Shown here one piece after another: positions 1-16,977 of a DNA stretch of 64,000 bases. A program made the translations under genes and the position numbers. Source of the stretch: an uncultured Candidatus Saccharibacteria bacterium (GTDB lineage Bacteria > Patescibacteriota > Minisyncoccia > 2-02-FULL-40-12 > GWA2-44-9). The notes under the pieces are model-generated. The model was not told the origin of the DNA, ran no database searches, and saw nothing but the letters and a program-made list of their open reading frames with translations. The first letter of the stretch is position 1. Each line of letters starts with the position of its first letter. Where the stretch lies: NCBI GenBank assembly GCA_964513645.1, contig CAZENF010000003.1, positions 127,914-191,913 on the forward strand, in the 5' to 3' direction.

Positions 1-22
1 TTATAAAGCTCGAAGCGATAAA

Positions 23-370
23 CTAGCTCCGTCCATAGTCATCCGCCAATCGGGTGATATCGTCTTCGTCATGTTCGCCGAAAGTGACCTCGATTATCGT
101 AGTATCAGTAATTCCTTCAGCACGATGCGCTTCTTCCTTTTTGAATGCGATAGTGTCGCCGGTCTTCAGAGTCAATGTTTCTTCGTCTTTTTGTATCTTG
201 GCTTCGCCGTCGGCTATAACCCAAAACTCGCTTCGCATCTGATGTTTCTGGAGGCTTAATCTCTGACCCTTTTTAACTTCTATTACTTTGAGATGCCATT
301 TTCCGGTCTCTTCGGCCATATCGTAGTATCCGCCCCAGGGTTTTTCCACGTCTTTGTTTAGTTTTTTCAT
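23..370 (-). CDS. Stand-alone cupin domain protein, type II mannose-6-phosphate isomerase C-terminal-like
   Basis: 115 aa ORF; motifs EKPWGGYY and LSLQKHQMRSEFWVIADGEAKI match the RPWGxY / LSLQxHxxRxEHWxVV cupin signature of type II PMI/GMP C-terminal domains; sits next to the GH130 genes. Confidence 0.6.
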   Translation of the reverse strand: MKKLNKDVEKPWGGYYDMAEETGKWHLKVIEVKKGQRLSLQKHQMRSEFWVIADGEAKIQKDEETLTLKTGDTIAFKKEEAHRAEGITDTTIIEVTFGEHDEDDITRLADDYGRS

Positions 371-376
371 ATTTTA

Positions 377-2296
377 TTAGTACGCATAAGCGCCGAACAA
401 TCTTAATAAGGTTGGTAAAGGCATCGCGGCTACTCCAACAACTGAATCAGCACCGCCATAGTACATGAATATTGTATCGTTCTTGATAACTGCTCCACAA
501 GGAAATACGACATTGTTGACCTGGCCGTTCTTTTCGAAAGGAAATCTCGGTTCGAGAATTGAGTCATCGGTTCGAGCCAAAATTTTTACCGGGTCTTTAA
601 GATCGGCCAGAATCGCGCCGACCCGGTAATAGCCGTCGTCATCTGAAATTCCATGGTACAACAACAGCCAACCTTTGGAGGTTTTTATCGGCGGGGCGGA
701 AATACCAACCTTTCTTGAATCCCACATTCCTTTGCGGGGTGCTATCCAACGGTATTCTTCAAGCCAGTGCTTACCGTCAAAATTAAGCGATTCGTGATAT
801 GAAATATCTATGTCTTGTCCGGAACGGTGAATGACCACGTATTTGCCGTTTATTTTTTCAGGGAATATCGCGGCATCTTTGTCGTCTATGTCCGGCGGGG
901 AGATAAGTACCGGTTTTGACCAGTTCCATTTTTGTTCGAGAAAATCTTTTTCCGAGATCGAGGTCAGAGCTACTCTGGGAGGACTCGAACCATTATAAGC
1001 GGTGTAGCACATATAAAGATGACTCCCGATCTTAGTGATACGAGGATCTTCACAACCCGAATTCCAATTCGGCTGGGATTTAGTTTCGAACGGTTCTCTC
1101 GGTAAATAGATCGGTTCAGGTCCGCGGTAATCGATATTAATCCCGTCTTTTGAAGTGGCGTAACCGATCACGGATGTATTGTCCTCTGACATTGCCCGGT
1201 AAAGTATGTGAACTTTTCCGCCAAGATATATTGCTGCCGGATTGAAAACAGCTTTTGATTCCCAGGGATGTTCTTTAAGCGGAGAGATTATTTCTTTCTC
1301 ATTTGACCACAGGACTTTTATCGGACCGCGGATAAATTCAAGTTTTGCCAGAAGCATTTTTAAAGATATCATCGCCACACAGATGACGGTATCTGCCCCG
1401 CCGTAGTAGAGATATATCTGTCCGTTCTTTACCAATGCTCCTGAAGGGAAAACTATATTCGGAACATGTCCCATTTTTTCATAATATTCTTCAGGGGTCA
1501 GGAGCGGTGCGCTTGTTCGTCCGATTATCTTGGTAGGATCTTTCAGATCAAGCAGAACGGCCTCAATGCTGAAAACTTGTTTCGGGTTGCCGTAGTCATG
1601 AATATACGAATAAAATATCAGCCAACCGTCTTTTGTTTTTATCGGCGGAGAACCCATTTCGACAAAATCATTCGGTTTTCTCTGGAGAGGCAGGGTGTTC
1701 TTATCCAAATTTTCATACCACTTTTTCCATTTCTCTTCATTCCAAAGATCTTCTTCTTTATCAAAGCTTGCGACGCCTATTTTGACCGGCGGCTGGTCGG
1801 TATTGACGGTCAGGATAGCCCACATTTTGCCGTTAATTTTTTCTGGGAAAAGGGCCATCGCTTTGGCGTTGAAAGGTGTGACGAGATGTTTTTCCTGAAT
1901 TTTTTCGAGGTCCTTGCTTATTGCAACACCGATCTTAATGCCTTCAGCCCGGAACGGATATTCGGAGAGGGCGGTGTAAAATATATAGTATTTTCCGTTG
2001 AGTTTGGTTGTCCGGGGGTCCTCACAGCCATATTTATCCCAGGATTGGTCGGAAACAATGAATCTTTTGCGGTCGGTAAAATTCAGTCCGTCCTTGGAAC
2101 GGCAGATGCCGATGTCAGATATCGATAATTTAAGGTTTGCCCCTGAATGATAATGCGAAAGTGAAACGGCTCGGTAGACCATGAATATTTCTTTGCCTTT
2201 CTCAACCGGACAACCGTTAAAAACCGCCTCTGCTTCCCATGATTGTTGGCGGTTTGGTTTAAGTATCGGGTTTTGGTGGCTTCTCTCTACTAACAT
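377..2296 (-). CDS. Tandem-duplicated GH130 family glycoside phosphorylase (two GH130 modules in one 639-aa polypeptide)
   Basis: Two copies of the GH130/DUF377 hallmark (GCEDPRTTKLNGKYYIFYTA and GCEDPRITKIGSHLYMCYTAYNG). Each is preceded by an AVFNxxxx...YRA(M/V)S block and followed by YYGGAD. Confidence 0.75.
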   Translation of the reverse strand: MLVERSHQNPILKPNRQQSWEAEAVFNGCPVEKGKEIFMVYRAVSLSHYHSGANLKLSISDIGICRSKDGLNFTDRKRFIVSDQSWDKYGCEDPRTTKLNGKYYIFYTALSEYPFRAEGIKIGVAISKDLEKIQEKHLVTPFNAKAMALFPEKINGKMWAILTVNTDQPPVKIGVASFDKEEDLWNEEKWKKWYENLDKNTLPLQRKPNDFVEMGSPPIKTKDGWLIFYSYIHDYGNPKQVFSIEAVLLDLKDPTKIIGRTSAPLLTPEEYYEKMGHVPNIVFPSGALVKNGQIYLYYGGADTVICVAMISLKMLLAKLEFIRGPIKVLWSNEKEIISPLKEHPWESKAVFNPAAIYLGGKVHILYRAMSEDNTSVIGYATSKDGINIDYRGPEPIYLPREPFETKSQPNWNSGCEDPRITKIGSHLYMCYTAYNGSSPPRVALTSISEKDFLEQKWNWSKPVLISPPDIDDKDAAIFPEKINGKYVVIHRSGQDIDISYHESLNFDGKHWLEEYRWIAPRKGMWDSRKVGISAPPIKTSKGWLLLYHGISDDDGYYRVGAILADLKDPVKILARTDDSILEPRFPFEKNGQVNNVVFPCGAVIKNDTIFMYYGGADSVVGVAAMPLPTLLRLFGAYAY

Positions 2297-2315
2297 TTAT
2301 AACTTGTTGGTTGCT

Positions 2316-2346
2316 CCGCTATCCCGTCAAGGCGGGATTACAGCGG
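2316..2346 (-). other. GC-rich stem-loop in the intergenic gap between the two GH130 genes (possible weak terminator or 5' leader structure)
   Basis: ccgct-atcccg-tcaagg-cgggat-tac-agcgg; no U-tract on the minus-strand transcript, so terminator function is uncertain. Confidence 0.3.
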
Positions 2347-2359
2347 TACGCTTAAGAGT

Positions 2360-3493
2360 CTATCCTTTTAAAGGTGATGTCCTAAGTTTAGGTTCTTTAT
2401 GATTCTTAAGTTCGTTTATAAATTCTTCAAAATCAGTGTGGGCAACACAAACATAACTATCGGCTCCACCGTAATAGACAAGAAGTTTTCTGTTCTTTAC
2501 CACCGCGCCTGAAGCATAGACAACTCCGCCTTTAAAACCGTGATTCTCGTAATGTTCGTTCGGTTCAAGTATCGGAGCTTTTGCCCGGGCGATTATTCTA
2601 GTCGGATCGTCTTGGTCAAGAAGCATTGCTCCGACGCGGTATTTGCCCCAGTCGTTATCCATTGCGTGATAGAACAAGAGCCAGCCATATTTAGTCTTAA
2701 TCGGTACCGGTCCTGCGCCACGTAGCCACCTATCCCAACAGTTTTTTCTGCGTTTTCCGCCGCCGTGGAAACTTTGAATATAATTTGTATCATCGAATTC
2801 CATCGTATCTCGGTACTCAACTTTTATTTCAGGATTTATGCTGTGCAATATCGCGTATTTTCCTTTTATTTTTTCCGGGAATATCAGCCAGTTTTTATGA
2901 ACCTCTCCGGGAGGGGAAAGAAGGATGGGTTCGGTCCAGTTCCACCTCTTATTTCTGAAGTCATCAACTTTTATGGAAGTTAAAGCGACCCGTAAATCTC
3001 CGTTGCAGGCGGTGTAGGTCATAAAAAGAGCATCTTCATTGCCTACTCTGACTATTCTCGGGTCTTCTCCGCCGCCCCATGAGCCGCCGGAAAAATATGA
3101 AAAAACATTATAAGACCTTTTTTGGTTAGGGTGTTCATAGGCCGGTTGAGGGTGGCGCTCTTTTATTCCAAAACCGTCGTCTGATGCGGCATAACCCAGA
3201 CGGGAAACACCGTCAGGTCCTATTGCCCGGTACATAAAATGAACTTTATCATCGAGCTGGACAACTCCTGGATTAAACGTCTGCCAGCCGTCCCATTCAT
3301 TGTTGTGCCGGGGAGAGATTATCGGATTAGAATGCGGTTTCCGAAGGGCTAATTTTGGAAAAGATTTTTTGGCCGGAGATTTTTTCTGTTTTTTTTGGTT
3401 TTTCGGTTTTGAAACCAACTTAACATTTCTCTTTTTTGGAGTTGTCGTTTTTTCTGTTTTTTTTCTGCCAAATCTTGACTTTTTTTGGGCCAT
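2360..3493 (-). CDS. GH130 family glycoside phosphorylase with a lysine-rich, disordered N-terminal tail of about 50 aa
   Basis: GGEDPRIVRVGNEDALFMTYTACNGD and YYGGADSYVCVA GH130 motifs. N-terminus is MAQKKSRFGRKKTEKTTTPKKRNVKLVSKPKNQKKQKKSPAKK. Confidence 0.7.
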   Translation of the reverse strand: MAQKKSRFGRKKTEKTTTPKKRNVKLVSKPKNQKKQKKSPAKKSFPKLALRKPHSNPIISPRHNNEWDGWQTFNPGVVQLDDKVHFMYRAIGPDGVSRLGYAASDDGFGIKERHPQPAYEHPNQKRSYNVFSYFSGGSWGGGEDPRIVRVGNEDALFMTYTACNGDLRVALTSIKVDDFRNKRWNWTEPILLSPPGEVHKNWLIFPEKIKGKYAILHSINPEIKVEYRDTMEFDDTNYIQSFHGGGKRRKNCWDRWLRGAGPVPIKTKYGWLLFYHAMDNDWGKYRVGAMLLDQDDPTRIIARAKAPILEPNEHYENHGFKGGVVYASGAVVKNRKLLVYYGGADSYVCVAHTDFEEFINELKNHKEPKLRTSPLKG

Positions 3494-3614
3494 TTAAGTA
3501 TGAAAAGACACTTAAATTATAAGGCTTTTTTACTTCTTAGACAAACAAAAATGGTGGATAACAATATTGATATAAATGATAGTATTTTGGTCATAAATCG
3601 TGTATTATTAAATT

Positions 3615-4358
3615 GTGAAGAAGAATCTATTGATCATGGGAATATTGTTTATTGTCCTGACCTTTGGGACGTTTTTTGTTTTGAAAAAAGACCAGCCTGG
3701 CAAGATCGGAGAACCGTTGCCGTCGCCCCGTCAGTATGTGTCGCCAACAACCAAAGCCAGTCCGTCAGTTTCCACTGTGTCCGGGGGTCTTCCTTCAGAA
3801 ATAAATCTCAACGTACCTTTTACTTCACAGGCGCCTTTTCAGGACTGGAGTCTGCCGTATGATGAATTTTGCGAGGAAGCATCGACCCTGATGGCGGCAA
3901 GTTATATCAAAGGTTCGCCGATAATAGACCCGGCAGATGCGAATAAAAAACTTTTGGAGATAAAAGCGTTTGAAGAAAAGTTCTTTGGTTTTTACGAGGA
4001 TACAAATACCGAACAGACTGCCATGATACTCACTAACTATTATGGTATCAAAAACATTAAAGTTTTATATGAACCCACTCTCGATGATATTAAAAAGTCT
4101 CTTGCCGGAGGTAAGGTTGTTTTGCTACCCGCAGCCGGGCAATTACTCGGCAACCCGTATTACCGTCAGCCGGGACCCATTTATCACATGCTTGTACTGA
4201 AGGGCTATACCAAGGACGGCAATATTATCACTAACGATCCTGGAACAAGAAGAGGCGAGAATTATATTTACGACGCTTCGGTTCTAATGAATGCGATGCA
4301 TGATTGGAATAACGGGGACATCCTCTCCGGCCGCAAAGCAGTCATAATAGTGGGCTAA
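3615..4358 (+). CDS. Membrane-anchored papain-like (peptidase C39-like) domain protein
   Basis: GTG start; N-terminal TM helix. Q...C pattern (SQAPFQDWSLPYDEFCEEAS) with a downstream His (PIYHMLVLKGY) and ITNDPG, typical of the C39-like Cys/His fold. Confidence 0.45.
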   Translation: MKKNLLIMGILFIVLTFGTFFVLKKDQPGKIGEPLPSPRQYVSPTTKASPSVSTVSGGLPSEINLNVPFTSQAPFQDWSLPYDEFCEEASTLMAASYIKGSPIIDPADANKKLLEIKAFEEKFFGFYEDTNTEQTAMILTNYYGIKNIKVLYEPTLDDIKKSLAGGKVVLLPAAGQLLGNPYYRQPGPIYHMLVLKGYTKDGNIITNDPGTRRGENYIYDASVLMNAMHDWNNGDILSGRKAVIIVG

Positions 4359-4369
4359 TATCTAAAATT

Positions 4370-4494
4370 AAAAATCCCGCGTAGGCTTCAGTCTATGAAG
4401 GGACTTGCGCAGGCCGACTGGGCCGAGCACGAAGCAAAATTTCAGCAGAAATTTATGCTGTGCCCTGAATGGGCTGAAGCCGAGAGCGGGATTT
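4370..4494 (+). other. Long imperfect inverted repeat of about 125 nt at the boundary of the GC-rich island. It may be the terminator of the upstream gene, a structured RNA or an insertion boundary
   Basis: aaaatcccgcgtaggcttcag (4370-4390) is complementary to ctgaagccgagagcgggatttt (4473-4494); GC content rises abruptly from here. Confidence 0.35.
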
Positions 4495-4511
4495 TCGTAG
4501 GAGCATTAAAC

Positions 4512-4540
4512 TTGCATATATAGAAGTTTTGTGTTATAAT
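4512..4540 (+). promoter_or_regulatory. Near-consensus sigma70 promoter (TTGCAT-17 nt-TATAAT)
   Basis: ttgcat at 4512-4517, 17-nt spacer, tataat at 4535-4540; lies about 75 nt upstream of the GC-rich ORF. Confidence 0.6.
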
Positions 4541-4616
4541 CTTGAAAGTACCATGGATAGGGGCAATTTCGTCCCATCCTATCTCTCGATCCGCCCCGGG
4601 CGGTGAAGGAGGAAAA

Positions 4617-5003
4617 ATGAAGATTCAAGTCGTCTCGAGGGATCCGCGTGTTCCGTTCCAGATTTCCAAAGAGAACGAGAAGAGGATTTACGAGTCTGCC
4701 GAAACCGCCGATGCGCTCAAGGCGCTCAACAGCATCGATCGGATCGCCAAGGTCATGGAGCTCTACGCTTCGGCGAAGATGATTCTCGCGAACCTCCATC
4801 AGTCGAAGATGGTGCGCCGTCTTGCCCACTGGCAGACGACCTGCCGTTTCGACGGCTGCCCGAAACAGCCCCGCATCGTCGGCCGCCGTCAGACCAGGAC
4901 TCATCTTTTCTGCAAGGGTCACACGTTGGTTGCGAGCTGCCTGTCGCGCGTGGACTACGAACGTCTCAAGTCGAGCTCGATGCTCCGCGTTGTCGTCGGG
5001 TAG
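4617..5003 (+). CDS. Small Cys/His-containing basic protein encoded on a GC-rich (about 58% GC) island; function unknown
   Basis: ATG at 4617 preceded by GGAGG (aaggaggaaaaATG). 128 aa; C-terminal CRFDGC...LFCKGH...ASC cluster. GC-rich codon usage unlike neighbouring genes. The track ORF 4542..5003 uses an upstream TTG. Confidence 0.5.
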   Translation: MKIQVVSRDPRVPFQISKENEKRIYESAETADALKALNSIDRIAKVMELYASAKMILANLHQSKMVRRLAHWQTTCRFDGCPKQPRIVGRRQTRTHLFCKGHTLVASCLSRVDYERLKSSSMLRVVVG

Positions 5004-5008
5004 TATCT

Positions 5009-5046
5009 GCCCCGCCTGATTAAATTCAGGCGGGGCCATTTTATTT
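5009..5046. terminator. Bidirectional intrinsic terminator between convergent genes
   Basis: gccccgcctga-ttaaat-tcaggcggggc perfect 11-bp stem, followed by cattttattta. Confidence 0.75.
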
Positions 5047-6403
5047 ATATGGTTCTATGAGGGTCGAGTTCTGTATCAGTCAAAGGCGATTGAGGCAGTT
5101 GTCGGATACGATATGGCAGGAGGATAATTAGAAACAGCATTTCGGTTGTACTGGCCAAAGCGAATGCGACCGGAATGGCTAAGATATCAAGCGACGGTAA
5201 CAGGAGATAACCTACCCCGATGGCGATGATCAGACCTATCACTGACATTATCACCGGTATCACGGTGTTTTTTGTTGCATAAAAAGCTCGGGCCAGAAGG
5301 TGGATAATAGATTCGGTCGGAATGCCCAAGGTAAATATTCCAAGAGTCATCGCGGTTCTGGCAATGGCTTTTTCATCAAAGCGTCCGCCGCCTAAGACGA
5401 GGCGTATCAAAGGTTCTCTGATGATGAACGTAACAACCGCGCAAAAAACACTGCCGGCAAATATCAGCAGAAAAGAATCTTTTAAGGTTTTTTTAAATTT
5501 TTCAGTTGAATGGGAAGCGATGGTTTCCGAAAGGACCGGAAAGGCGGTGGTGGCGAAAGTTATACCTATCAGACTGACCGGAACGCTCATGAAGTCTCTG
5601 GCAAAATTCATGACCGCGACCGAACCGGCGCTTAAACTCGAAGCCAGAACGGTGAATCCCCAGAACATTGCGAGCTCGACTGGATGGCCGAACATTTTAG
5701 GAAGCATCAGCGCAACGGTTTTTTTGAATTCTGGCGTTTTGAAATTAAAATTCATTTTAAATTTATAACCAGAAAGATAGCCGTCGATAATGCGGATGAG
5801 CATGTGGAACCCCGCGCCGCAGACGGTGCCGATTGCTACCCCGTTTATCCCGAAATATGGCGACAAAAATACCGCGCCCAATATCATCCCTAAGTTATAA
5901 AGTATCGGTGAAATTCCGTAGAAGAAAAATCTTTTTTTAGCCACCAGCATCGCTCCGATGGTATTGGATACCCCGAACATTATCGGCGATAACGAAAGCC
6001 ATCTTAAAATTCCGGTAACCATCGCCCGGCCTTCGGCGTCAAATCCGGGAGCGACGATAAAACTTATCTGCTTGGCAAAAACCACGAAAAATATTCCGGT
6101 CATGGTCATGGTTATTATCGCGGCTGAAACGACTGAATTTGAATAGGCATATGCCTTTTCGTGGTCTGATCGGTAAATTTCGCTGAAAAGAGGGACGAAA
6201 GCAGCCGCAATCCCGCTGGCAATAAGGATATTAAACAAAAGGTCGGGCATTAAAAAAGCGGCATTGTAAGCGTCCAACGCCCGTGAGGCGCCGAAAATAT
6301 GGGCAAACAGACGGTCTCTGAAAAGACCGAGCAGGTAAGAAACCAGGGTGGTCGAGGCTAAAACAGCGCTTCCGGCCGGAACGATCTTGAGGAGTTTGTT
6401 CAT
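5045..6403 (-). CDS. murJ: Lipid II flippase MurJ (MviN), MOP superfamily
   Basis: 452 aa polytopic protein; N-terminus LLGLFRDRLFAHIFGASRALDAYNAAFLMPDLLFNILIASGIAAAFVPLFSE is the canonical MurJ start. Confidence 0.85.
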   Translation of the reverse strand: MNKLLKIVPAGSAVLASTTLVSYLLGLFRDRLFAHIFGASRALDAYNAAFLMPDLLFNILIASGIAAAFVPLFSEIYRSDHEKAYAYSNSVVSAAIITMTMTGIFFVVFAKQISFIVAPGFDAEGRAMVTGILRWLSLSPIMFGVSNTIGAMLVAKKRFFFYGISPILYNLGMILGAVFLSPYFGINGVAIGTVCGAGFHMLIRIIDGYLSGYKFKMNFNFKTPEFKKTVALMLPKMFGHPVELAMFWGFTVLASSLSAGSVAVMNFARDFMSVPVSLIGITFATTAFPVLSETIASHSTEKFKKTLKDSFLLIFAGSVFCAVVTFIIREPLIRLVLGGGRFDEKAIARTAMTLGIFTLGIPTESIIHLLARAFYATKNTVIPVIMSVIGLIIAIGVGYLLLPSLDILAIPVAFALASTTEMLFLIILLPYRIRQLPQSPLTDTELDPHRTI

Positions 6404-6424
6404 ATAATGTGATAAAATAATAAC

Positions 6425-6826
6425 ATGACCAAATCTATATACAAAATTCTTATCGTTGAAGATGAAAAACTTATGCAGGAGCTCCTTACCGACCGTCTTT
6501 CTAAAGAGCCGATATTTAAGATCTACACCGCCAGCAACGGTGAGGAAGGGTTCGAAGTTTGCCGGGAATATATTCCAGACCTGATACTCCTTGATATAAA
6601 AATGCCTGTTATGGACGGGATAATGATGATGAGGGAGTTAAAAAAATACGAACAACTCAAGGATATTCCGATAATATTTCTGACCAATCTCGATCCGGAT
6701 GAGGACATTATCAAAAAGATCTCGGAAGAAAAACCGTCATACTACCTTATCAAAGCGAAAACAAATCTCGAGGATATTACCGAGAGGGTTAAAGAGACTC
6801 TTTCTGCAAAAAGACCGACATCTTAA
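6425..6826 (+). CDS. Stand-alone response regulator receiver (CheY-like) protein
   Basis: ILIVEDEKLMQELL...DLILLDIKMPVMDG...IIFLT; acidic pocket, phospho-acceptor Asp and conserved Lys contexts present; no output domain. Confidence 0.85.
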   Translation: MTKSIYKILIVEDEKLMQELLTDRLSKEPIFKIYTASNGEEGFEVCREYIPDLILLDIKMPVMDGIMMMRELKKYEQLKDIPIIFLTNLDPDEDIIKKISEEKPSYYLIKAKTNLEDITERVKETLSAKRPTS

Positions 6827-6898
6827 AAAAGCCGGACAGGCCCAAAAACTCTTATAATTTAAGGAAATTTAATCCATAGGCTGGTCAGCTGGTTTTTT

Positions 6899-7447
6899 TT
6901 GTGTAACAATTTGGCGCCAATAACGTCTTCAAATATGTCAGAACATAACGTGCTCAATGAACAATTCATGCAAGCCTATGACCAGTTTTCAGATGCTATA
7001 TTCAGGCATTGCTGGTTTAGGATTGGGGATCGTGAGAAGGCCAAAGATCTGATGCAGGATACTTTCACCAAATCATGGCAGTACATCGCCGATGGGGGCG
7101 TGGTCCAGAACCTTAAGCCATTTCTTTACCGCGTTGCCAATAATCTTATAATTGATGAATACCGGAAGAAAAAAGAACTTTCGCTTGATAGTCTTCAGAC
7201 CCTGGGCTTTGATCCTGGATTTGACGACCGGAACAGGAATGACAACCGGATCGACGCCAAACTGGCGGTCAGTGTGGTGAATCAGCTCGACGATAAATAT
7301 AAAGAGGTGGTTTTGATGAGATATATTGACGACATGTCGCCTTCGGAAATTGCCGAAGCCGTCGGAGAATCGGAGAATAACGTTTCAGTCAGGATACATC
7401 GCGGCCTTAAACAGTTAAAAGAAATTCTTGGAAAAAATGGAAGATAA
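6899..7447 (+). CDS. ECF-type RNA polymerase sigma-70 family factor
   Basis: Region 2 (LMQDTFTKSWQYI...YRVANNLIIDEYRKKK) and region 4 helix-turn-helix (LMRYIDDMSPSEIAEAVGESENNVSVRIHRGLKQLKEIL). Start may be the ATG at 6935 (MSEHNV). Confidence 0.85.
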   Translation: MCNNLAPITSSNMSEHNVLNEQFMQAYDQFSDAIFRHCWFRIGDREKAKDLMQDTFTKSWQYIADGGVVQNLKPFLYRVANNLIIDEYRKKKELSLDSLQTLGFDPGFDDRNRNDNRIDAKLAVSVVNQLDDKYKEVVLMRYIDDMSPSEIAEAVGESENNVSVRIHRGLKQLKEILGKNGR

Positions 7448-8303
7448 AAATTTCGAACAATTTATAAAAGAAGTTAGAAAGTCTGGCCTTTCCGACGAAG
7501 AACGTAACTCTATCCGGGAGTCAGTTTTTAATTTTATAAAAAATAATCCTGTAAGCGGTCAAACCCAACCCCGTCTCAAATACAGTTCCGGAAAAAATTT
7601 CTGGGACTGGTCGAGTATATATTTAAGAAATTTTAATTTAGCATCCATCATGGCACTATTACTCATCTTAACAGTAGCAGTTTCAAGCGGTGTCGGCCTG
7701 GCGGCTGAAAAAGCTCTGCCCGGCGACTTCCTTTATCCGGTGAAGCTCAATGTTAACGAGAACATTAGAGGTTTGACCAATATCACCGATCAACAAAAGG
7801 CCGATTGGGAAATTCAAAAAGCCGACCGCCGGCTCGAAGAAGCGGAAAACCTGGCTTCGAAAGGTTCTCTGGACTCGAAGAATCAGGCTGTTATCGAGGC
7901 TAATTTTGAAGCCCAATCTCGAAAAGTAAAGGACAGAATAAATAGTTTTGAAGATAAAAGTGACTTCAAGGCGGCGGCAAGCGTAAGCGCCAGTTTTGAA
8001 ACATCTCTGCAGGTTCACGAAAAAATATTACAGAAGATATCTGAAGAAAAAAAAGATTCTAAGAAAGATATCGAACCTATCGACGCTAAGATACGTTCGG
8101 AAGTAACAAGCATCAGGAACAGAAGAGACCACCTTGAGCTAAAGATAAGGTCCCACGGAAATACTAAGTTTAGGGAAGGTAAAAAAAGCAGTTCAAGTGA
8201 CGATAATTGGTCGGACACAGAGGTTAACGATGACATCAACATGAAAACAGCCAGCAGCTCAATCCGGCAAGACGGACATCTCAGATTAAAACTTAGATTT
8301 TAA
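7428..8303 (+). CDS. Single-pass membrane protein co-transcribed with the ECF sigma factor (putative anti-sigma / DUF5667-like)
   Basis: Overlaps the sigma gene by 20 nt; cytoplasmic N-domain, one TM (ASIMALLLILTVAVSSGVGLAA), then an extracytoplasmic coiled-coil-rich domain (LYPVKLNVNENIRG...). Confidence 0.45.
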   Translation: MEKMEDKNFEQFIKEVRKSGLSDEERNSIRESVFNFIKNNPVSGQTQPRLKYSSGKNFWDWSSIYLRNFNLASIMALLLILTVAVSSGVGLAAEKALPGDFLYPVKLNVNENIRGLTNITDQQKADWEIQKADRRLEEAENLASKGSLDSKNQAVIEANFEAQSRKVKDRINSFEDKSDFKAAASVSASFETSLQVHEKILQKISEEKKDSKKDIEPIDAKIRSEVTSIRNRRDHLELKIRSHGNTKFREGKKSSSSDDNWSDTEVNDDINMKTASSSIRQDGHLRLKLRF

Positions 8304-8317
8304 AACAAACATAAAAA

Positions 8318-8353
8318 CACAACATCCCGCATCTGCGGGATGTTGTGTTTTTG
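8318..8353 (+). terminator. Intrinsic terminator
   Basis: acaacatcccgca / tgcgggatgttgt perfect 13-bp inverted repeat, followed by gttttt. Confidence 0.8.
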
Positions 8354-8386
8354 GTGCAATGAATTTAATTCTGTTATAATCCCAGT

Positions 8387-9895
8387 ATGTCCAATAAGGC
8401 AGATGGTAAACTCAAAATACTTTTTGTCGCTTCCGAAGCGGCCCCTTTTGTTAAGGTTGGTGGTTTAGGCGAAGTGATGCGCTCCTTACCTAAGGCGCTA
8501 CGGAAACTCGGCCATGATGCCCGTGTTCTTATTCCCAAATACGCATCCATAGATCTTGAAAAATATCCTCTCGAGACCGAACTTAACAACATCAAGATCG
8601 CGAGCGGCGACAAGGACCCTTACGGTATTCTCATCTGTAACATTCTGAATCATGTGGGCTCCGACGGGGCTATCAATTATTTTCTTGAGAACATGGAATA
8701 TTATGAAAAAAGGGCCAATGTTTACGGTTATACCGATGATACGGTCCGCTGGGTCCTTCTTTCGAAGGCGGCTCTTGAGTTTGTCAGACAATCCAAATGG
8801 AAGCCGGACCTTATCGTCGCTTCTGACTGGCAGACCGGCTTTATTCCTAACCTCGTTCATACAGAATACAAAGATGATCCGGTACCCTCAAAGATACCCG
8901 TTGTTTTCTCTATCCATAATCTCAAATACCAAGGAACGTTCGATCCACGTTTTGTTTCGGAGATGGATTTTGATTCCGGTCAGGCTCCGATATCTGATTT
9001 TTTTGACCCCCAGACCCATAAATTAAGTGGGATGAGAAGGGGAATAATGTTCGCCGATGTTATCAATACTGTTTCCGAGACCTATGCCAGAGAAATTCTG
9101 ACCGAAGAGTTCGGTGAAGGTTTGGATAAACTTTTAAGTGAGCGTAAAAGCCGTCTTTTCGGTATTCTTAATGGCATTGATGTGGAATCTCTTAATCCAG
9201 AGACGGACAAAGAACTCGAAGTTAATTACAATATTCGTTCGACCGACAAAAGAAAAGAGAACAAGACCAGTCTTCAGAAACAATTCGGTTTGCCTCCTGA
9301 CGAGAATGTTTTTGTCATCGGGATGGTTTCGCGTATCGACGGCCAGAAGGGATTCGACCTGGTGACGCAAATGATCGGCCCCTTGATGGACAACATAAAC
9401 TTCCAGTTTGTTATCGTCGGAGAGGGCGATACCGGTTATCGGACATTTTTCGAAGAGCTTAAGGTTAAATATCCCGACCGGGTCGGTACGCATTTTTCAT
9501 TTGATTCACGTCTGCCGCGTCTGGTTTTCGGTGGCGCGGACGGGGTTTTGATACCCTCAAGATTCGAGCCCTCGGGTCTGGTGCAGATGGAAGCGATGCG
9601 CTACGGTGCCGTGCCTATTGTCAGGAAGGTTGGCGGCTTGGCGGATTCGGTTGCAGATTTTGCTCCGGAGTCTGACAGCGGTACCGGATTTGTTTTCGAA
9701 AGATACGATGCTTTTTCTCTGACGACTGCAATAATTCGAGCTCACGAACTTTACCGCCACAAAAAGGAATGGGAAAAGCTTGTTAAAAGAGCGATGACTG
9801 AAGACTTTTCTTGGGAAAAGTCCGCCGCGGAATACATAAAACTATTTGAAATGGCACTAAGGTTTCACAAGGAAAAAAGCGATGAGGTGGGCTAA
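8387..9895 (+). CDS. glgA: Glycogen (starch) synthase, GT5 family
   Basis: KILFVASEAAPFVKVGGLGEVMRSLPKAL (K-V-G-G-L ADP-glucose binding motif), GT-B architecture, 502 aa. Confidence 0.85.
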   Translation: MSNKADGKLKILFVASEAAPFVKVGGLGEVMRSLPKALRKLGHDARVLIPKYASIDLEKYPLETELNNIKIASGDKDPYGILICNILNHVGSDGAINYFLENMEYYEKRANVYGYTDDTVRWVLLSKAALEFVRQSKWKPDLIVASDWQTGFIPNLVHTEYKDDPVPSKIPVVFSIHNLKYQGTFDPRFVSEMDFDSGQAPISDFFDPQTHKLSGMRRGIMFADVINTVSETYAREILTEEFGEGLDKLLSERKSRLFGILNGIDVESLNPETDKELEVNYNIRSTDKRKENKTSLQKQFGLPPDENVFVIGMVSRIDGQKGFDLVTQMIGPLMDNINFQFVIVGEGDTGYRTFFEELKVKYPDRVGTHFSFDSRLPRLVFGGADGVLIPSRFEPSGLVQMEAMRYGAVPIVRKVGGLADSVADFAPESDSGTGFVFERYDAFSLTTAIIRAHELYRHKKEWEKLVKRAMTEDFSWEKSAAEYIKLFEMALRFHKEKSDEVG

Positions 9896-11372
9896 TTTTC
9901 TACATATTTACCAGCCGGCAGGGCAGCAACCGGATATTTTAGCGGCTGTATCCAATCAAAGCTATCGGCCGATACTTCAAGGCATTAAAGAAAACCCCAA
10001 AGCCAAAATGACCCTCAATATCAATGGGGTTCTTCTCGAGATGTTCGATCAGCACGGATATCGGGATCTGATCGATCTGATAAACGAACTCATGACGGAT
10101 GGTCGTCTCGAACTGACCGGTTCGGCAAAATATCACGCCCTTCTTCCATTTTTGTCTGAACAGGAGTTGATAAGGCAAGTTCAGGAAAACACAGAAACCT
10201 TAACCTTTTATACTGATAAAAAATTTAAGCCCCAGGGATTCTTTCCGCCGGAGATGGCTTACGATGAAAAAATAGTCCCCGCTATTGAGAGCTTAGGATA
10301 CAAATGGTTCATTATCGATGAGATAGCATGCGGAGGCAAGACAGGCCAGGTTGATTATACGAAGATATATAAAATTAAAGGTTCTTCCATGTCTGTTTTT
10401 TTTCGGGAACGTCGGCCCAGTAATCTTATAATGGGAGCGGCTGTCAGGTCTTTTGAAACTTTACGTGAGGCGATAGGTGGTGATATTAAGTCGGAGAGAT
10501 ACATGATAATCGGAATGGACGGGGAAACTTTCGGGCATCATCGGCCGGGATTAGATAAGCTTTTGTTGCAAATATTCCGGTCTTCAGAGTTCGAACTTGT
10601 AAAAATATCCGACCTCTTCAATTACTACCACGATGTTGTTGAGATAAACCCGGTTAAATCTACCTGGGCTTCAAGTGAAGAAGATATCGAAAAGGGTGTC
10701 CAGTTCCTGTCGTGGCGTGATCCCGATAATGAAATACATCGTTGGCAGCAGGAATTAGTAGATATTGCACTCGAAGGAGTATACGGAATGGATAAAACCT
10801 CGGCTCAATATGCGAATACGAGGCGCTTAATGGATGAAGCTTTGTCGAGTGATCAGTTCTGGTGGGCATCGGCCAAGCCCTGGTGGAGTCTGGAGGAAAT
10901 AGTCAGAGGAGCGGTTATGTGTTTCTCCATCATCAAAGACATACCGGCTATTGATAAGGAAAAAGTTGAGCATGCCCGGTTTTTGTATGAAAAAATAATA
11001 TCGACTGCTTTTCAGTGGAAAAGAAGCGGCAAAGTATATGACATGCTCCAGGCCCGTAAGAATATCACGAAGATACCGTTCAAGGAGAGGACGTTTGAAA
11101 AAGGAGGAGATGAAGAAGCAAAATACCTCGCTTTTATTGAGCTGTTAAAAACTCTCGAGAAAGAAGCTGTGGGAAAAGGGGAATATGAAAAAGCTATTCT
11201 GTGGCGCGATTCTATCTGGAAAATAGAAAATAAATCTGATATCTACGATGCGATGCATGCGATCGATCTTTTAAGGATGGAGATACCCAACTTTGAAGTT
11301 GAGGAAATTATTAAAAAATATCAGAAAAAATACCGTGAGATACGGGGTGGTCAGCCGGAACAGAGAGGATAA
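9882..11372 (+). CDS. Glycoside hydrolase family 57 protein (alpha-glucan processing: branching enzyme or amylase type)
   Basis: N-terminal NFLHIYQPAGQQ (HxHQP-like GH57 start), GVLLEMF, KYHALLPFL and ETFGHH motifs; overlaps glgA by 14 nt. Confidence 0.65.
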   Translation: MRWANFLHIYQPAGQQPDILAAVSNQSYRPILQGIKENPKAKMTLNINGVLLEMFDQHGYRDLIDLINELMTDGRLELTGSAKYHALLPFLSEQELIRQVQENTETLTFYTDKKFKPQGFFPPEMAYDEKIVPAIESLGYKWFIIDEIACGGKTGQVDYTKIYKIKGSSMSVFFRERRPSNLIMGAAVRSFETLREAIGGDIKSERYMIIGMDGETFGHHRPGLDKLLLQIFRSSEFELVKISDLFNYYHDVVEINPVKSTWASSEEDIEKGVQFLSWRDPDNEIHRWQQELVDIALEGVYGMDKTSAQYANTRRLMDEALSSDQFWWASAKPWWSLEEIVRGAVMCFSIIKDIPAIDKEKVEHARFLYEKIISTAFQWKRSGKVYDMLQARKNITKIPFKERTFEKGGDEEAKYLAFIELLKTLEKEAVGKGEYEKAILWRDSIWKIENKSDIYDAMHAIDLLRMEIPNFEVEEIIKKYQKKYREIRGGQPEQRG

Positions 11373-11379
11373 ATTAAAA

Positions 11380-11405
11380 ATACCCCTTAGGGGGTATTTT
11401 TTGCA
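11380..11405. terminator. Bidirectional intrinsic terminator overlapping the stop codon of the minus-strand gene
   Basis: atacccc-tta-ggggtat hairpin, followed by ttttttg on the plus strand and UUUUAAU on the minus-strand transcript. Confidence 0.6.
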
Positions 11406-12145
11406 GTTAGAACTTTCATCATCAGTTCCGGGCAATCGGTCACAATTCCGTCAACACCTAAATCAACGAATTTCTCGATCGTTTCGAGATCATTAAATAT
11501 GCCGGCCAGGACTTTTACGCCTTGCCGATTAACTTCCCGTATCTGTTTTTTAAGGGATGCTTTCCGGCCGCCGAGTGTTGCGAACAATAATCTACTTAGC
11601 AGAGATTCCTGAAGCCAGCCGATGGAAATAATATCAGGCCGGTATTTTGCTACGATTTTAGGAAGGTTGACCGGCCACATCACGATGAGATGTGTTTTGA
11701 TTGCCGAGTTCAAAGTTTTGGCAAAAGTGAGAAGTCTCGCATCGGATTCGATATTGAACATTACCAGGCGTTTTTGGAAAGCGGTCAGATAAACCCTCTC
11801 TTCGAGACCGTTGGCGGTAATCGCCCGAACAGCGTCTCCGACAAGCCCGAAAGAGTTTTGTTTTATGTCGAGGAGGCACGAAACATTGTCGAGTGTCTTG
11901 AGCATGCCCATCAGTTCATCGAGGTCCATGATATTGAATACCGAATTTCGAAGTTCCGCGTAGCTATAGCAGATAAGGTCGGGCTTGATGCTACCTGGGT
12001 GGTAGATTATTGGCTTTCCGTCCCAGGAATGGCAAATATCGGTTTCGATGCAGGTTATGCCTGCCCGGTAAAGATAAATTAACCCTTGGCGACTGTTGCC
12101 TATTTCGATGGGAGAAGCTCTGGTCCGGTGAGCCCAGATTTCCAT
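11387..12145 (-). CDS. Glycerophosphodiester phosphodiesterase (GDPD) family protein
   Basis: WAHRTRASPIEIGNS (HR(G)...EN(T) motif) and ETDICHSWDGKPIIYHPG (E-D...DG...H block) typical of the GDPD/UgpQ fold. Confidence 0.55.
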   Translation of the reverse strand: MEIWAHRTRASPIEIGNSRQGLIYLYRAGITCIETDICHSWDGKPIIYHPGSIKPDLICYSYAELRNSVFNIMDLDELMGMLKTLDNVSCLLDIKQNSFGLVGDAVRAITANGLEERVYLTAFQKRLVMFNIESDARLLTFAKTLNSAIKTHLIVMWPVNLPKIVAKYRPDIISIGWLQESLLSRLLFATLGGRKASLKKQIREVNRQGVKVLAGIFNDLETIEKFVDLGVDGIVTDCPELMMKVLTAKNTP

Positions 12146-12181
12146 AATAGTTTTTTGTGAATGAGCTTTAGTGTATGGTAT
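12146..12181 (+). promoter_or_regulatory. Sigma70 promoter with extended -10 (TTGTGA-18-TGgTATAAT)
   Basis: ttgtga...tggtataat immediately upstream of the msrA ATG at 12192. Confidence 0.5.
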
Positions 12182-12191
12182 AATTTTTCTA

Positions 12192-12752
12192 ATGAATAAA
12201 TCAACCCTAAAAGAAGCTATGTTCGGAGCGGGATGTTTTTGGGGAGTTCAGTATAATTTTGACCAACTGAAAGGTGTGATTGAAACAGAGGTCGGTTATG
12301 CCGGTGGACACACCGATAAACCGACTTACAAAGAAGTTTGTACCGACAAAACCGGCCATGCCGAAGTTGTTCATTTGCAGTATGACACTTCGGTCGTCAG
12401 TTACGAAGAATTGCTCAAAAATTTTTGGGAAAATCATGACCCAACAACAATGAACCGTCAGGGTCCGGATATTGGCAGCCAATACCGCTCGATAATTTTT
12501 TATTATGATGAAGAGCAGAAACGGACGGCGGAAAGGTCAAAAGAAGAGCTCGGTAAATCAGGCGAGTACATGAATCCCGTACGAAGTCTCGCTCGCGACA
12601 AAGTCACGAGTCCTCAAAAGGACCTCGGCGAGGCTACTTCGTACGGGATGAACAAAGTCGTGACCGAGATCGTCCCGGCCTCGCAGTTCTACAAAGCCGA
12701 GGAATATCATCAGAAATATTTTGAGAAGACCGGCCAGAAAGTTTGTCATTGA
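12192..12752 (+). CDS. msrA: Peptide methionine-S-sulfoxide reductase MsrA
   Basis: MNKSTLKEAMFGAGCFWGVQ (GCFWG active site) and GYAGGHTDKPTYKEVCTDKTGHAEVV. The track start at 12171 lies inside the -10 box, so ATG 12192 is preferred. Confidence 0.9.
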   Translation: MNKSTLKEAMFGAGCFWGVQYNFDQLKGVIETEVGYAGGHTDKPTYKEVCTDKTGHAEVVHLQYDTSVVSYEELLKNFWENHDPTTMNRQGPDIGSQYRSIIFYYDEEQKRTAERSKEELGKSGEYMNPVRSLARDKVTSPQKDLGEATSYGMNKVVTEIVPASQFYKAEEYHQKYFEKTGQKVCH

Positions 12753-12983
12753 TTTATAGATATCTTTTGGCTCGGATCGGATGTCCAAAATCTCTGCGCA
12801 TTTTGGCACCCTATCCCCTCGGCATTTCGAAGATCCGTTGTTAAGTCCGTGCTTATTTGTTACCGAAAATTATTCGTCAAAGCTCTAATTTTCGAACAAA
12901 TGGGCACTACCGCCTTACAGCGTCTTATTGATGAGCCGAAATGCCTGCGGGAAATTCCTCGCTAAAAGATATCTATAAATCAA
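12749..12983. repeat. Perfect 20-nt inverted repeat pair flanking 195 nt of non-coding DNA (MITE-like or structured-RNA element)
   Basis: ttgatttatagatatctttt (12749-12768, overlapping the msrA stop) and its exact reverse complement aaaagatatctataaatcaa (12964-12983). Internal complementary pair cggcatttcg / cgaaatgcc. Confidence 0.6.
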
Positions 12984-13039
12984 TATTTTCGCAGACTGTC
13001 TTTTTTGAACATCTAAATACTTAAATTGAATTTGCGCAG

Positions 13040-13235
13040 CCTGTCCCAATTTTTGTCACTTGATGAGCCGAATGAATTTAAGAAGATAGTTTAGATTTCT
13101 ATATCAAAATAATAGGTCGAGCGCCGAACGATAGTGAGGAGGCAAGCGAGGGTTACCTGTTATTTTGATAATAAAATCTATGCTATTCTGAATAAATTTA
13201 TGAGGCGAGGAACCGTGACCAAAAATTGGGACAGG
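13040..13235. repeat. Second inverted repeat pair (20/21 nt) flanking about 155 nt, ending 25 nt before msrB
   Basis: cctgtcccaatttttgtcac (13040-13059) versus gtgaccaaaaattgggacagg (13216-13235). Also a direct repeat ttgatgagccgaa(a)tg at 12928 and 13060. Confidence 0.55.
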
Positions 13236-13259
13236 CGAAAGCAAATTTATAAATAAAAA

Positions 13260-13673
13260 ATGACCAAAGACGAAATACAAAAAATGAATGAAGAAGATTG
13301 GAAGAAAAAGCTGACGCCGAAACAGTATAAAATTTTGCGTGAGAAGGGTACGGAAATGGCCTTTACCGGCAAGTATTATAAGAATCATGAGTCGGGGATG
13401 TATGTCTGCGGCGCCTGTGGCCAGGAATTATTCTCTTCAGATACCAAGTTTGATTCAGGTTCCGGCTGGCCGAGTTTCACGGATCCGGTCAACCGTGAGA
13501 ATGTTGAACTAAAACTCGATACCAGTCATGGCATGAACCGTGTCGAGGTTATCTGCAAGAATTGCGGTTCTCATCTGGGCCATGTCTTTGATGACGGCCC
13601 GAAGGATAAGGGTGGCAAACGCTTTTGTATCAATTCCTGTGCTCTGGATTTTAAAAAGAAAGAAGATAAATAA
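13260..13673 (+). CDS. msrB: Peptide methionine-R-sulfoxide reductase MsrB (SelR)
   Basis: CGACGQELF...GSGWPSF...[21 protein letters not shown]: two CxxC zinc motifs and the catalytic Cys context of MsrB. Confidence 0.9.
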
Positions 13674-13675
13674 AA

Positions 13676-14791
13676 ATGAAACGTCGAGATATAATCATAG
13701 TCATAGTTGTTTTAGCCGCTTTTGGTCTGATTTGGTATTTCCAAGACAGAAGTAGTATCTCACTACCAACCTCGGTAAATACGCAGTCGGGAGGGGTGGT
13801 TCAGGTTCAGAGTTTATTAAAACCGGAGAGTGACAAAGGATTTTCTGCCGCCCCCGACCTGACCGATGTTCAGGGATTTATAAATTCAAAACCCTTCAAA
13901 CTCCAGGATTATATCGGTAAAAAAGTTATTCTCATTGATTTCTGGACTTACAGCTGTATCAACTGTCAAAGAACCACGCCGTATTTGAATAGCTGGTGGG
14001 AAAAATATAACGACAAAGGTCTTCTGATCGTCGGAGTTGAAACGCCTGAATTTGAATTTGAAAAACATCTTGAAAATGTCCAGGCGGGCGTTGATAAACT
14101 CGGCATAAAATATCCTGTCGTCCAGGATAATAATTACGGGACCTGGAATGCTTACGGCAACCGCTACTGGCCCAGAAAATATCTCATCAATCTCGACGGC
14201 TACGTCGTCTACGATCATATCGGAGAGGGCGGTTACCAGGAAACCGAACAAAAAATTCAGGAAGTTCTTAATGAAAGAATGGCGGCCTTAGGAACGACAG
14301 GCAGTTTGACCGAAAGTTTAACTTCCGAACAAAACGACCATCTTGGTGATATCCAAAGCCCGGAAACATATTTTGGTTCAGGTCGGAATGAATATTTTGG
14401 CAACGGGACTGGCGCCCAGAACGGTACGCAGAATTTGACCAGACCTAAAAATATTCAGCTAAATCAGTTTTACCTGAACGGTAACTGGGAATTTTCTCCG
14501 GAATATGCCGAAAATAAATCTGAAAATGCGAGTATAATTTATAAATATAACTCTAAAAACGTTTATTTTGTGGCCGGTTCGGATAATGGTGCTAAGATCA
14601 AGGTTCTCCAGGACGGCCAGCCGGTTTCTGGTGCGGCGGGAGATGATGTCGCCAAAGATGGCACTGGCGGAGGTTTTATCAAGGAAAATCGGCTTTATAA
14701 ATTAATTTCTAACCCTTCCGCCGGCGAGCACACCCTTGAAATAATCATTGAAGAGCCCGGTCTTAAAGCGTTTACGTTCACATTCGGATAA
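13676..14791 (+). CDS. Membrane-anchored thioredoxin-like (TlpA/ResA family redoxin) protein with a C-terminal extension
   Basis: N-terminal TM; FWTYSCINCQRTTPYL (CxxC in a thioredoxin fold context); follows msrB by 3 nt. An envelope Msr-reducing partner is plausible. Confidence 0.6.
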   Translation: MKRRDIIIVIVVLAAFGLIWYFQDRSSISLPTSVNTQSGGVVQVQSLLKPESDKGFSAAPDLTDVQGFINSKPFKLQDYIGKKVILIDFWTYSCINCQRTTPYLNSWWEKYNDKGLLIVGVETPEFEFEKHLENVQAGVDKLGIKYPVVQDNNYGTWNAYGNRYWPRKYLINLDGYVVYDHIGEGGYQETEQKIQEVLNERMAALGTTGSLTESLTSEQNDHLGDIQSPETYFGSGRNEYFGNGTGAQNGTQNLTRPKNIQLNQFYLNGNWEFSPEYAENKSENASIIYKYNSKNVYFVAGSDNGAKIKVLQDGQPVSGAAGDDVAKDGTGGGFIKENRLYKLISNPSAGEHTLEIIIEEPGLKAFTFTFG

Positions 14792-14808
14792 TGTGATATA
14801 ATTAAATT

Positions 14809-16137: not shown

Positions 16138-16366
16138 TTACTGTCAAATACCCGCCGGAGAAGATTGATCATGCGGGGGAATTCGTTTAAACCGCGATTA
16201 ATTCATATTTTGTGCTTGTCTCCGGTCTTGTTATCCACTCTATTTCAGCCACCTATGGTAAAATTAGTATGTAGAACTCTTAAATAATATCGGATTTTTG
16301 AAGTTTGAATTTCGAATTATTTTTCGGTCATAATTCATAATTCTCTGTTCATAATTCGGTTATAAA

Positions 16367-16699: not shown

Positions 16700-16745
16700 A
16701 AGGCGGAATCTGCCTGTCGGCAGGCAGGGCGGTCAACAAGTTATA

Positions 16746-16973: not shown

Positions 16974-16977
16974 ATTT

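Follow-up and report, generated by a model that had tools for sequence, protein, structure and literature searches.

A conserved three-module GH130 cassette with differing phosphate sites in a Patescibacteria contig

Introduction

The subject of this work is a tandem gene of glycoside hydrolase family 130 (GH130), with its neighbours, in 64,000 nucleotides of DNA from an uncultured Candidatus Saccharibacteria bacterium (GenBank assembly GCA_964513645.1, contig CAZENF010000003.1, positions 127,914 to 191,913 of the forward strand); this whole stretch is called the window below. The closest described system is the pair Teth514_1788 and Teth514_1789 of Thermoanaerobacter sp. X-514, a beta-1,2-oligomannan and a beta-1,2-mannobiose phosphorylase, respectively [GH130_6 according to PMC12814180; Protein Data Bank (PDB) 9FJ8, 7FIP]. 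Both are true phosphorylases and single-module proteins (one a homodimer, one a monomer), encoded as adjacent paralogues that are specialised by chain length, tied to mannose-phosphate metabolism and placed within a GDP-mannose biosynthesis cluster (PMC4264767). Solved GH130 structures are homo-dimers, trimers or hexamers, save one reported monomer (PMC8950772). The beta-1,2-mannosidases BT3780 and BACOVA_03624 (GH130_3 according to PMC12814180; PDB 5A7V, 3QC2) have no basic phosphate ligands but keep the Asp, the Lys and the sugar site. The five-bladed propeller and the mechanism are shared by GT108 enzymes MTP1-MTP4 of Leishmania mannogen cycling (PDB 6Q4W-6Q50), a paralogue set in which phosphate-site differences accompany transferase versus phosphorylase activity on beta-1,2-mannan (PMC12814180, PMC10913872). 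Chains with two GH130 domains are on record as well: four GH130-GH130 sequences were present among 1592 CAZy entries in 2018 (Li et al. 2020, PMC7660257), where they were handled merely as a technical issue for network clustering, without residue analysis, function or distribution.

The tandem gene of the window encodes the same domain architecture as these CAZy entries, with propellers here called modules N and C, and is preceded by a lone-module paralogue, gene A. All three modules keep the sugar subsite, the proton donor and the beta-1,2 determinants of the family; the phosphate-binding set is complete in module C, weakened in gene A and lost and rebuilt in module N. With moderate confidence, we read the locus as a conserved cytoplasmic cassette of Patescibacteria acting on beta-1,2-mannosides, in which module C would be phosphorolytic, module N phosphate-independent and gene A weakened, the three forming one hetero-oligomer.

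Results

Gene layout and family membership

Gene A, the tandem gene and a cupin gene are co-directional on the minus strand, and 6 bp separate the tandem-gene stop from the cupin start. The features are as follows, in the order in which they are read.

3516..3544, minus strand: promoter-like site TTGTCT-17-TATAAT upstream of gene A; 10 of 12 consensus matches
2360..3493, minus strand: gene A, lone-module GH130 paralogue; 377 amino acids (aa), with a 'KNW' motif
3344..3493, minus strand: N-terminal tail of gene A, 50 aa long and rich in Lys/Arg (40% K+R), no hydrophobic signal segment
3056..3073, minus strand: GGEDPR of gene A; aa 141-146, proton donor Asp144
377..2296, minus strand: tandem GH130 gene; 639 aa, module N + linker + module C
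1337..2296, minus strand: module N; aa 1-320
2012..2029, minus strand: GCEDPR of module N; aa 90-95, proton donor Asp93
aa 181-200 of module N, minus strand: N-specific insertion of three helices with invariant Trp185, Trp190 and Trp193, in the loop termed L2 in PMC12814180
1307..1336, minus strand: inter-module linker, ~10 aa; aa 321-330, sole low-confidence block of the AlphaFold2 (AF2) model, pLDDT ~62
380..1306, minus strand: module C; aa 331-639
1040..1057, minus strand: GCEDPR of module C; aa 414-419, proton donor Asp417
23..370, minus strand: stand-alone cupin, 115 aa, homologous to the C-terminal phosphomannose isomerase (PMI) domain of type II GDP-mannose pyrophosphorylase (GMP)/PMI enzymes

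The Pfam profile PF04041 (Glyco_hydro_130; curated cutoff 26 bits) matches the 639-aa protein in two stretches (369 bits, E 1.7e-110) and gene A once (146 bits, E 1.7e-42). Searched separately, the N half (residues 4-314) aligns end to end with the solved GH130 phosphorylase 9fj8 (E 5.9e-51) and the C half (residues 327-627) end to end with solved GH130 phosphorylases (E 5e-66); 9fj8 is also the best PDB match of gene A (E 6.6e-42). The original prediction of three GH130 modules in two genes is thus confirmed by Pfam and the half-by-half searches, each module having an EDPR motif with its proton-donor Asp, and all three belong to GH130 by profile and fold. Teth514_1788/1789 is the best sequence and fold match of all three (Foldseek TMt 0.87, ~41% identity).

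The AF2 model of N-C (pLDDT 93.3, pTM 0.88) supports a five-bladed beta-propeller fold when used as Foldseek query (9fj8, TMt 0.87, rmsd 2.0), and its pTM implies that the predicted arrangement of the two propellers is a defined one. No solved structure with two GH130 propellers per chain was found; the best Foldseek matches span half of the model (TMq 0.41).

On NCBIfam NF052550 (beta-1,2-mannobiose phosphorylase, cutoff 450) all single modules score below the cutoff (N, 206 bits; C, 276 bits; A, 187 bits), whereas the fused protein reaches 476 bits and passes solely through its summed domains. This is an annotation hazard: pipelines could name the fused protein 'beta-1,2-mannobiose phosphorylase' without either module qualifying. 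Module N scores 98 bits on the BT3780 model NF058598 (cutoff 550), being nearer to the phosphorylase model, and by these scores is not placed in the known GH130 hydrolase subfamily.

The cupin matches PF01050 MannoseP_isomer (82 bits), Cupin_2 and positions 356-467 of TIGR01479, in agreement with the PMI-like cupin that had been noted next to the GH130 genes. The scan that gave the promoter-like site returned 11 such sites versus 7.7 expected, so the site is weak evidence; an A / N-C / cupin operon could start from it. In the 63-nt spacer between gene A and the tandem gene (2297..2359, minus strand) there is an inverted repeat (CCGCT..ATCCCG / CGGGAT..AGCGG). A hairpin at this position was considered and rejected, its folding energy being no better than that of shuffles (z = -1.44).

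No signal peptide was seen in N-C or gene A by a simple hydropathy check, which is not a dedicated predictor (maximal Kyte-Doolittle values 1.05 and, for gene A, -0.21, versus 3.04 in a secreted C39-like neighbour used as control); this fits intracellular enzymes by the criterion of PMC7660257. The N-terminal tail of gene A recurs in most listed homologues (~40-65 aa, 33-50% K+R) with its composition kept and its sequence not, and binding of a polyanion or membrane is a possibility that this composition raises. In some relatives a phosphomannomutase (PMM)-type haloacid dehalogenase (HAD) domain is fused upstream of A in place of the polybasic tail.

Occurrence of the fused gene

An assembly error at the junction of the modules had been named as a risk, and the window does come from a metagenome-derived contig. 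It is scarcely credible, however, that the fused open reading frame (ORF) is an assembly or gene-calling artefact joining two neighbouring GH130 genes. An identical fused ORF with the same neighbours is present in an independent Logan assembly (run SRR12313479). The top 120 clusters in a search of 5.8 billion proteins are full-length homologues of 63-81% identity, 119 of them 634-682 aa long (named taxa: Liptonbacteria, Jorgensenbacteria, Levybacteria, 'Patescibacteria group'). A relative was found in at least 593 GTDB species-representative genomes; the locus analyses given below refer to the best 80 of these, all of which match from residue 1 to ~632 with the fused frame kept (80/80) and which are overwhelmingly Patescibacteria. 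Across many studies and assemblers the same continuous ORF of 630-650 aa recurs (119 homologues, 80/80 GTDB loci), and within it the linker is short and in frame and the modelled chain has a pTM of 0.88. The independent assembly and this recurrence rule the artefact out. Among 50%-identity cluster representatives searched exhaustively, 103 of the best 150 matches are at least 560 aa long.

GH130-GH130 chains are rare in CAZy and common in Patescibacteria. They had been called an unusual architecture, a description that no longer fits given the CAZy entries (PMC7660257) and the number of genomes; as an architecture the tandem is less exotic than first supposed, and as a conserved, unexplained trait of the candidate phyla radiation (CPR) it is more interesting. 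No literature analysing the GH130-GH130 combination was found, and searches for GH130 together with Patescibacteria or the CPR gave passing mentions only. The architecture is accordingly catalogued but unstudied; the literature searched appears to contain no description of the conserved asymmetry of the modules, of the three-module unit at operon level or of the polybasic tail.

Tandem GH130 proteins of another, more divergent class (~600-625 aa) were seen among the representatives P0266-P0390 and are absent from the window. Their first propeller has neither EDPR nor the sugar-site residues, and their second is canonical or A-like. A further tandem representative, P0301, has hydrolase-like signatures in both modules.

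Relationships among the modules

The two halves of the tandem protein had been taken for an internal tandem duplication. Their pairwise identities speak otherwise: N and C share 35%, C and A 44%, and N and A 28%, and module C is nearer to Teth514_1788 (~41%) than to N. In a neighbour-joining tree, whose support is weak and which serves as a consistency check only, the A, N and C families are each monophyletic; A and C come together, with the Thermoanaerobacter beta-1,2 phosphorylases placed between this pair and N. A recent internal duplication is ruled out by the identities, with which the tree topology agrees.

Conservation does not differ between the halves: mean pairwise identity among homologues is 70.8% for module N versus 70.3% for module C, and N has 50 invariant columns. 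Since N is as conserved as C, it is not decaying.

Sugar and phosphate sites

Equivalences were anchored on the native numbering of Teth514_1788 (Asn28, Glu91, Asp92, Asp281; PMC4264767), which the alignment reproduces. Lys184, Arg202 and Arg242 of Uhgb_MS (PMC12814180) were counted directly in a phmmer alignment, Arg202 corresponding to Ser218 of gene A; the phosphate Arg/His pair and the Arg/Glu/Lys/Asp beta-1,2 signature were taken from Table 2 of PMC7660257. Conservation was scored in 119 N-C homologues, 115 gene A homologues and the 80 GTDB loci (75 for A); counts out of 199 combine the 119 and the 80.

Common to all three modules, and invariant across these samples, are the Asn, Asp and Asp of the -1 subsite, the proton donor and the residues that determine the beta-1,2 linkage. 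The proton donors Asp93 (N), Asp417 (C) and Asp144 (A) are equivalent to UhgbMP D104 and Teth514_1788 D92. The sugar site of module N is intact (Asn27, Arg42, Glu92, Asp93, Lys145, Asp302; 80/80 and 119/119), and module C has the full canonical set (Asn352, Arg367, Glu416, Asp417, Lys473, Asp474, His490, Arg491, Lys529, His548, Tyr557, Asp617), that is, every catalytic, phosphate-binding and beta-1,2 residue of Teth514_1788/1789. The beta-1,2 signature of the +1 and -1 subsites, whose Lys is Lys199 in BT3780 (PMC4599007), is R42/E92/K145/D302 in N, R367/E416/K473/D617 in C and R89/E143/K200/D345 in A, all invariant. On this signature, beta-1,2 linkage specificity is predicted for all three modules, and the suggestion of a dual beta-1,2 and beta-1,4 specificity finds no support (PMC7660257 Table 2). 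What sets the modules apart is the nucleophile site and not the linkage determinants.

The positions around that site are compared below; residue numbers are those of the window's proteins.

Teth514_1788 Lys142: C, Lys473; N, Lys145; A, Lys200
Teth514_1788 Asp143: C, Asp474; N, Ala/Gly (Ala146); A, Asn201
Teth514_1788 Ala144: C, Ala/Thr/Ser (Ala475); N, Met147; A, Trp202
Teth514_1788 His159: C, His490; N, Leu/Phe/Val (Leu162); A, His217
Teth514_1788 Arg160: C, Arg491; N, Thr163 (T/S/G/A, never Arg in 199); A, Ser218 (Arg in 8/75 genomes)
Teth514_1788 Arg194: C, Lys529; N, His/Gln (Phe211 here); A, Val/Ile/Thr (Leu257), then invariant Arg258
Teth514_1788 Gly196: C, Gly (79/80); N, Glu213; A, Gly/Ser/Ala
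Teth514_1788 His213: C, His548; N, Ser230 (Ser/Ala/Cys, never His); A, His276
Teth514_1788 Tyr221: C, Tyr557; N, Phe242 (Phe in 199/199); A, Tyr285

The phosphate Arg/His pair (UhgbMP R168/H231) is present in module C as Arg491 and His548, and its Arg, His and Tyr are each kept in 119/119 homologues and 79/80 GTDB loci. Module N has Thr163 and Ser230 instead, with Arg and His never found there in 199 sequences. Gene A has Ser218 in place of the Arg and keeps His276 and Tyr285; its Arg position reads S111/G3/N1 in the 115 homologues and S46/N12/R8/G5/T2 in the 75 GTDB loci, and the eight genomes in which A keeps the Arg suggest that A descends from a canonical phosphorylase. The decisive codons (minus strand) are those of Arg491 (824..826) and His548 (653..655) in module C, Thr163 (1808..1810) and Glu213 (1658..1660) in module N, and Ser218 (2840..2842) in gene A. 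By these residue patterns, only module C keeps the phosphate ligands of a phosphorylase, and N and A probably have other chemistry or merely bind sugar. A module lacking the catalytic Asp or phosphate site, hence a pseudo-domain, had been named as a refuting outcome; N has indeed lost the phosphate site (Thr163 for Arg, Ser230 for His, Phe242 for Tyr), but there is no decay of the pseudo-domain kind, the module being as conserved as its partner with all sugar residues kept.

Phe211 of module N (1664..1666, minus strand) is an outlier: the position, which faces the former phosphate pocket, is His/Gln in 77/80 GTDB loci, and Phe occurs in 1 of the 119 homologues, the window's own protein.

Glu213 and the comparison with hydrolases

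Module N was aligned with BT3780 by way of P0301 as a bridge, using a BT3780 chain numbering of native + 4 (checked on Asn74, Arg89, Glu141, Asp142, Lys199). In the alignment, BT3780 Tyr302, Asn285 and Glu268 correspond to Teth514_1788 Tyr221, His213 and Gly196, respectively, and Glu227 lands one or two residues past the Arg160 position. Glu213 of module N aligns with Glu268, a candidate catalytic base of BT3780, and is Glu in 117/119 close homologues and 80/80 GTDB genomes. Activity of BT3780 falls 200-fold in E268Q and 30-fold in E227Q (PMC4599007). Module N resembles BT3780 and BACOVA_03624 in having the Asp, the Lys and the sugar site without basic phosphate ligands; it differs from BT3780 in having no Glu227 equivalent, a Ser in place of the Asn found at the His position, Phe rather than Tyr302 and no signal peptide. 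If real, a hydrolase activity of module N would have evolved independently of the BT3780 type.

The same residues can be read in another way, with N, and perhaps A, as a pseudo-enzyme without catalysis, standing in for the second subunit of a homodimer and holding or positioning beta-1,2-mannan for C. We regard this as a tentative and rather unlikely alternative, although several observations speak for it. Module N has lost four to five phosphate-site residues and gained just one of the two hydrolase carboxylates; it has Phe for Tyr; the Glu213 position is variable in distant representatives; the three invariant Trp of the N insertion could serve as an interface or as a platform for sugar; and the ~600-625-aa tandem class, with its far more degenerate first propeller, makes such a module a recurring theme. 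Set against this are the invariance of Asp93 and all -1/+1 subsite residues in 199 sequences and the retention of Glu213 in 197/199, a constraint beyond the obvious need of binding alone; the argument is softened in that the equivalent Asp in homologues also hydrogen-bonds the sugar (PMC4599007).

The most economical reading of module N is accordingly a phosphate-independent, possibly weakly hydrolytic site, with a purely sugar-binding role plausible. Glu245, an invariant N-specific residue at the canonical Gly224, was considered as catalytic base by inference only and set aside: strand alternation should turn it away from Tyr221/Phe242, its presence co-varies with the loss of Arg222, and distant members have Q or N instead.

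Synteny and fusions

In 69/80 GTDB loci the modules lie on one strand in the order A, N, C; in six further loci the upstream module is a C-like variant, and the remainder have N-C only, several at contig ends. In several loci (L002-L005) the A and N-C genes overlap by 4 bp, unlike the 63-nt spacer here. The modules also occur as fusions in one chain: A-like, N-like and C-like in that order in P0040 (1110 aa) and likewise in P0241 (971 aa), A-C in P0255 and, in permuted order, C-N in P0245.

The cupin adjoins the cassette in 29/80 GTDB loci, and also in L007-L009; a HAD-family gene does so in 7/80. An N-terminal eukaryotic-type phosphomannomutase/HAD domain is fused to the A-like module of P0191. 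After the cassette in L007 (8112..11773) and L008 (7959..9096) come the cupin gene and an overlapping HAD gene of 270 aa (Hydrolase_3/S6PP-like), and in L007 an 816-aa GT4 glycosyltransferase gene lies between the cassette/cupin and HAD genes, hinting at a biosynthetic side of that locus. Homologues of these PMM/HAD and GT4 neighbours were searched for in the window and none was found but a marginal GT4 match at 28212..28661; the 64 kb held no phosphomannomutase by this search.

Discussion

From the architecture, conservation, residue patterns and synteny of the cassette we infer the substrate, activities, complex formation and pathway direction as follows. Module C would act as a canonical inverting phosphorylase, in which Asp417 relays the proton and phosphate held on Lys473, Arg491, Lys529, His548 and Tyr557 attacks C1 to give alpha-mannose-1-phosphate. 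Module N would bind the same sugar in a like manner; with the canonical phosphate hold lost and the pocket rebuilt with Glu213, it is most likely phosphate-independent, a weak hydrolase or else a non-catalytic mannoside-holding site. Gene A, with a phosphate site weakened by Arg to Ser and Asp to Asn, would contribute a modified site and a polyanion- or membrane-directed tail. A, N and C probably form one hetero-oligomer, of which N-C would be a covalent pseudo-heterodimer in a normally homo-oligomeric family; as the three paralogues, though diverged, have stayed side by side and been fused more than once, this is the simplest model, and the Teth514 precedent of adjacent chain-length-specialised GH130 paralogues (PMC4264767) makes a division of labour plausible. 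Compared with that pair, two modules are fused here, two of three are without the key Arg, and each is below the NCBIfam equivalog cutoff. A phosphomannomutase together with the PMI-like cupin would then convert mannose-1-phosphate to fructose-6-phosphate. The connection to central metabolism that had been drawn from the cupin is in part retained: the cupin is present, but a phosphomannomutase is also needed, and what is known of one comes from some relatives, with an adjacent HAD gene or a fused PMM-like HAD domain.

Several points weigh against this model. Of the two hydrolase carboxylates module N is without the second, having Val/Asn/His where BT3780 has Glu227, and the Tyr302 that hydrolases retain is Phe in it. 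In distant tandem representatives the residue at the Glu213 position is any of E, D, N, Q, Y, S and A, so that the role of catalytic base is not secure and pure binding is equally possible, and the equivalence of Glu213 with Glu268 comes from an alignment through a loop, not from coordinates. The single-module scores below the NF052550 cutoff leave the exact substrate unproven even for module C. The hetero-oligomer is drawn from synteny and fusions only, the tree is weakly supported, the window holds no phosphomannomutase, and no biochemical characterisation of any cassette member was found in the literature.

The GT4 and HAD genes beside the cassette in L007 bring in a biosynthetic or cycling role, in which the Arg-less module or modules would be GDP-mannose-dependent beta-1,2-mannosyltransferases and C the phosphorylase, turning over an intracellular beta-1,2-mannan reserve as the GT108 MTP set does with Leishmania mannogen. 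All tested beta-1,2 GH130 phosphorylases show weak GDP-mannose transferase activity, and the GT108 Arg/His position has been proposed to decide whether an enzyme is bifunctional or a transferase only (PMC12814180, PMC10913872); the Thermoanaerobacter GH130 pair lies in a GDP-mannose biosynthesis cluster (PMC4264767), and the proteins here are cytoplasmic and retained in very small genomes. We nevertheless consider this role quite improbable. Both R202A and R202H abolished transferase activity of Uhgb_MS (PMC12814180), module N is also without the His and Tyr contacts to the donor phosphate, and the GT108 Arg/His position was later found insufficient alone (PMC10913872). The likeness to GT108 is distant (Foldseek E ~1e-9, 14-18% identity, another CAZy family, separate single-module chains), and strict GT108 transferases keep Lys, His, His and Tyr round the donor phosphate, of which module N has only the Lys. 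No GDP-mannose pyrophosphorylase gene is adjacent to the cassette in the window. We also know of no report of beta-1,2-mannan in CPR bacteria, which is counted against this role.

A bolder proposal, improbable too but to our mind slightly less so, is that N and A have chemistry new to GH130 (an independent phosphate-independent hydrolase, or another nucleophile or donor) and would make up, with C, a self-contained machine that builds or mobilises an intracellular mannogen-like beta-1,2-mannan as a carbon reserve, an unnoticed core energy-storage trait of Patescibacteria. A link to mannosylglucosylglycerate metabolism, suggested by GH130-GT81 fusions, was dropped as no paper with both terms was found.

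Minimal Patescibacteria genomes have few recognisable carbohydrate enzymes, yet the cassette is kept by hundreds of species and is thus likely central to their sugar economy. It amounts to a natural experiment in one operon, in which a shared sugar pocket is combined with a nucleophile site that is kept (C), weakened (A) or rebuilt (N), and so bears on the interconversion of phosphorylases, hydrolases and transferases in GH130 and GT108.

Other features of the window

Neither tRNA genes nor Rfam families at gathering threshold were found across the window (1..64000). A divergently transcribed neighbour of the cassette and further carbohydrate genes of the window are as follows.

3615..4358, plus strand: divergently transcribed gene; 247-aa product, strongly hydrophobic in its N-terminal segment, with a Peptidase_C39_2-like domain (E 2.1e-08)
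8387..11372 and 14809..16137, plus strand: GT5 glycogen/starch synthase, then an overlapping GH57 gene; phosphoglucose isomerase nearby
27609..31025, plus strand: 1138-aa ORF whose single chain combines three GT4 glycosyltransferase units
31009..32931: GT4-methyltransferase fusion
32928..35303: DUF2206 membrane protein
35251..38424: pyruvyl-transferase/flippase fusion

From the GT5 and GH57 genes the organism appears to own an alpha-glucan storage route as well. The 1138-aa ORF opens a low-GC (0.36-0.40) polysaccharide-biosynthesis island, to which the last three features also belong.

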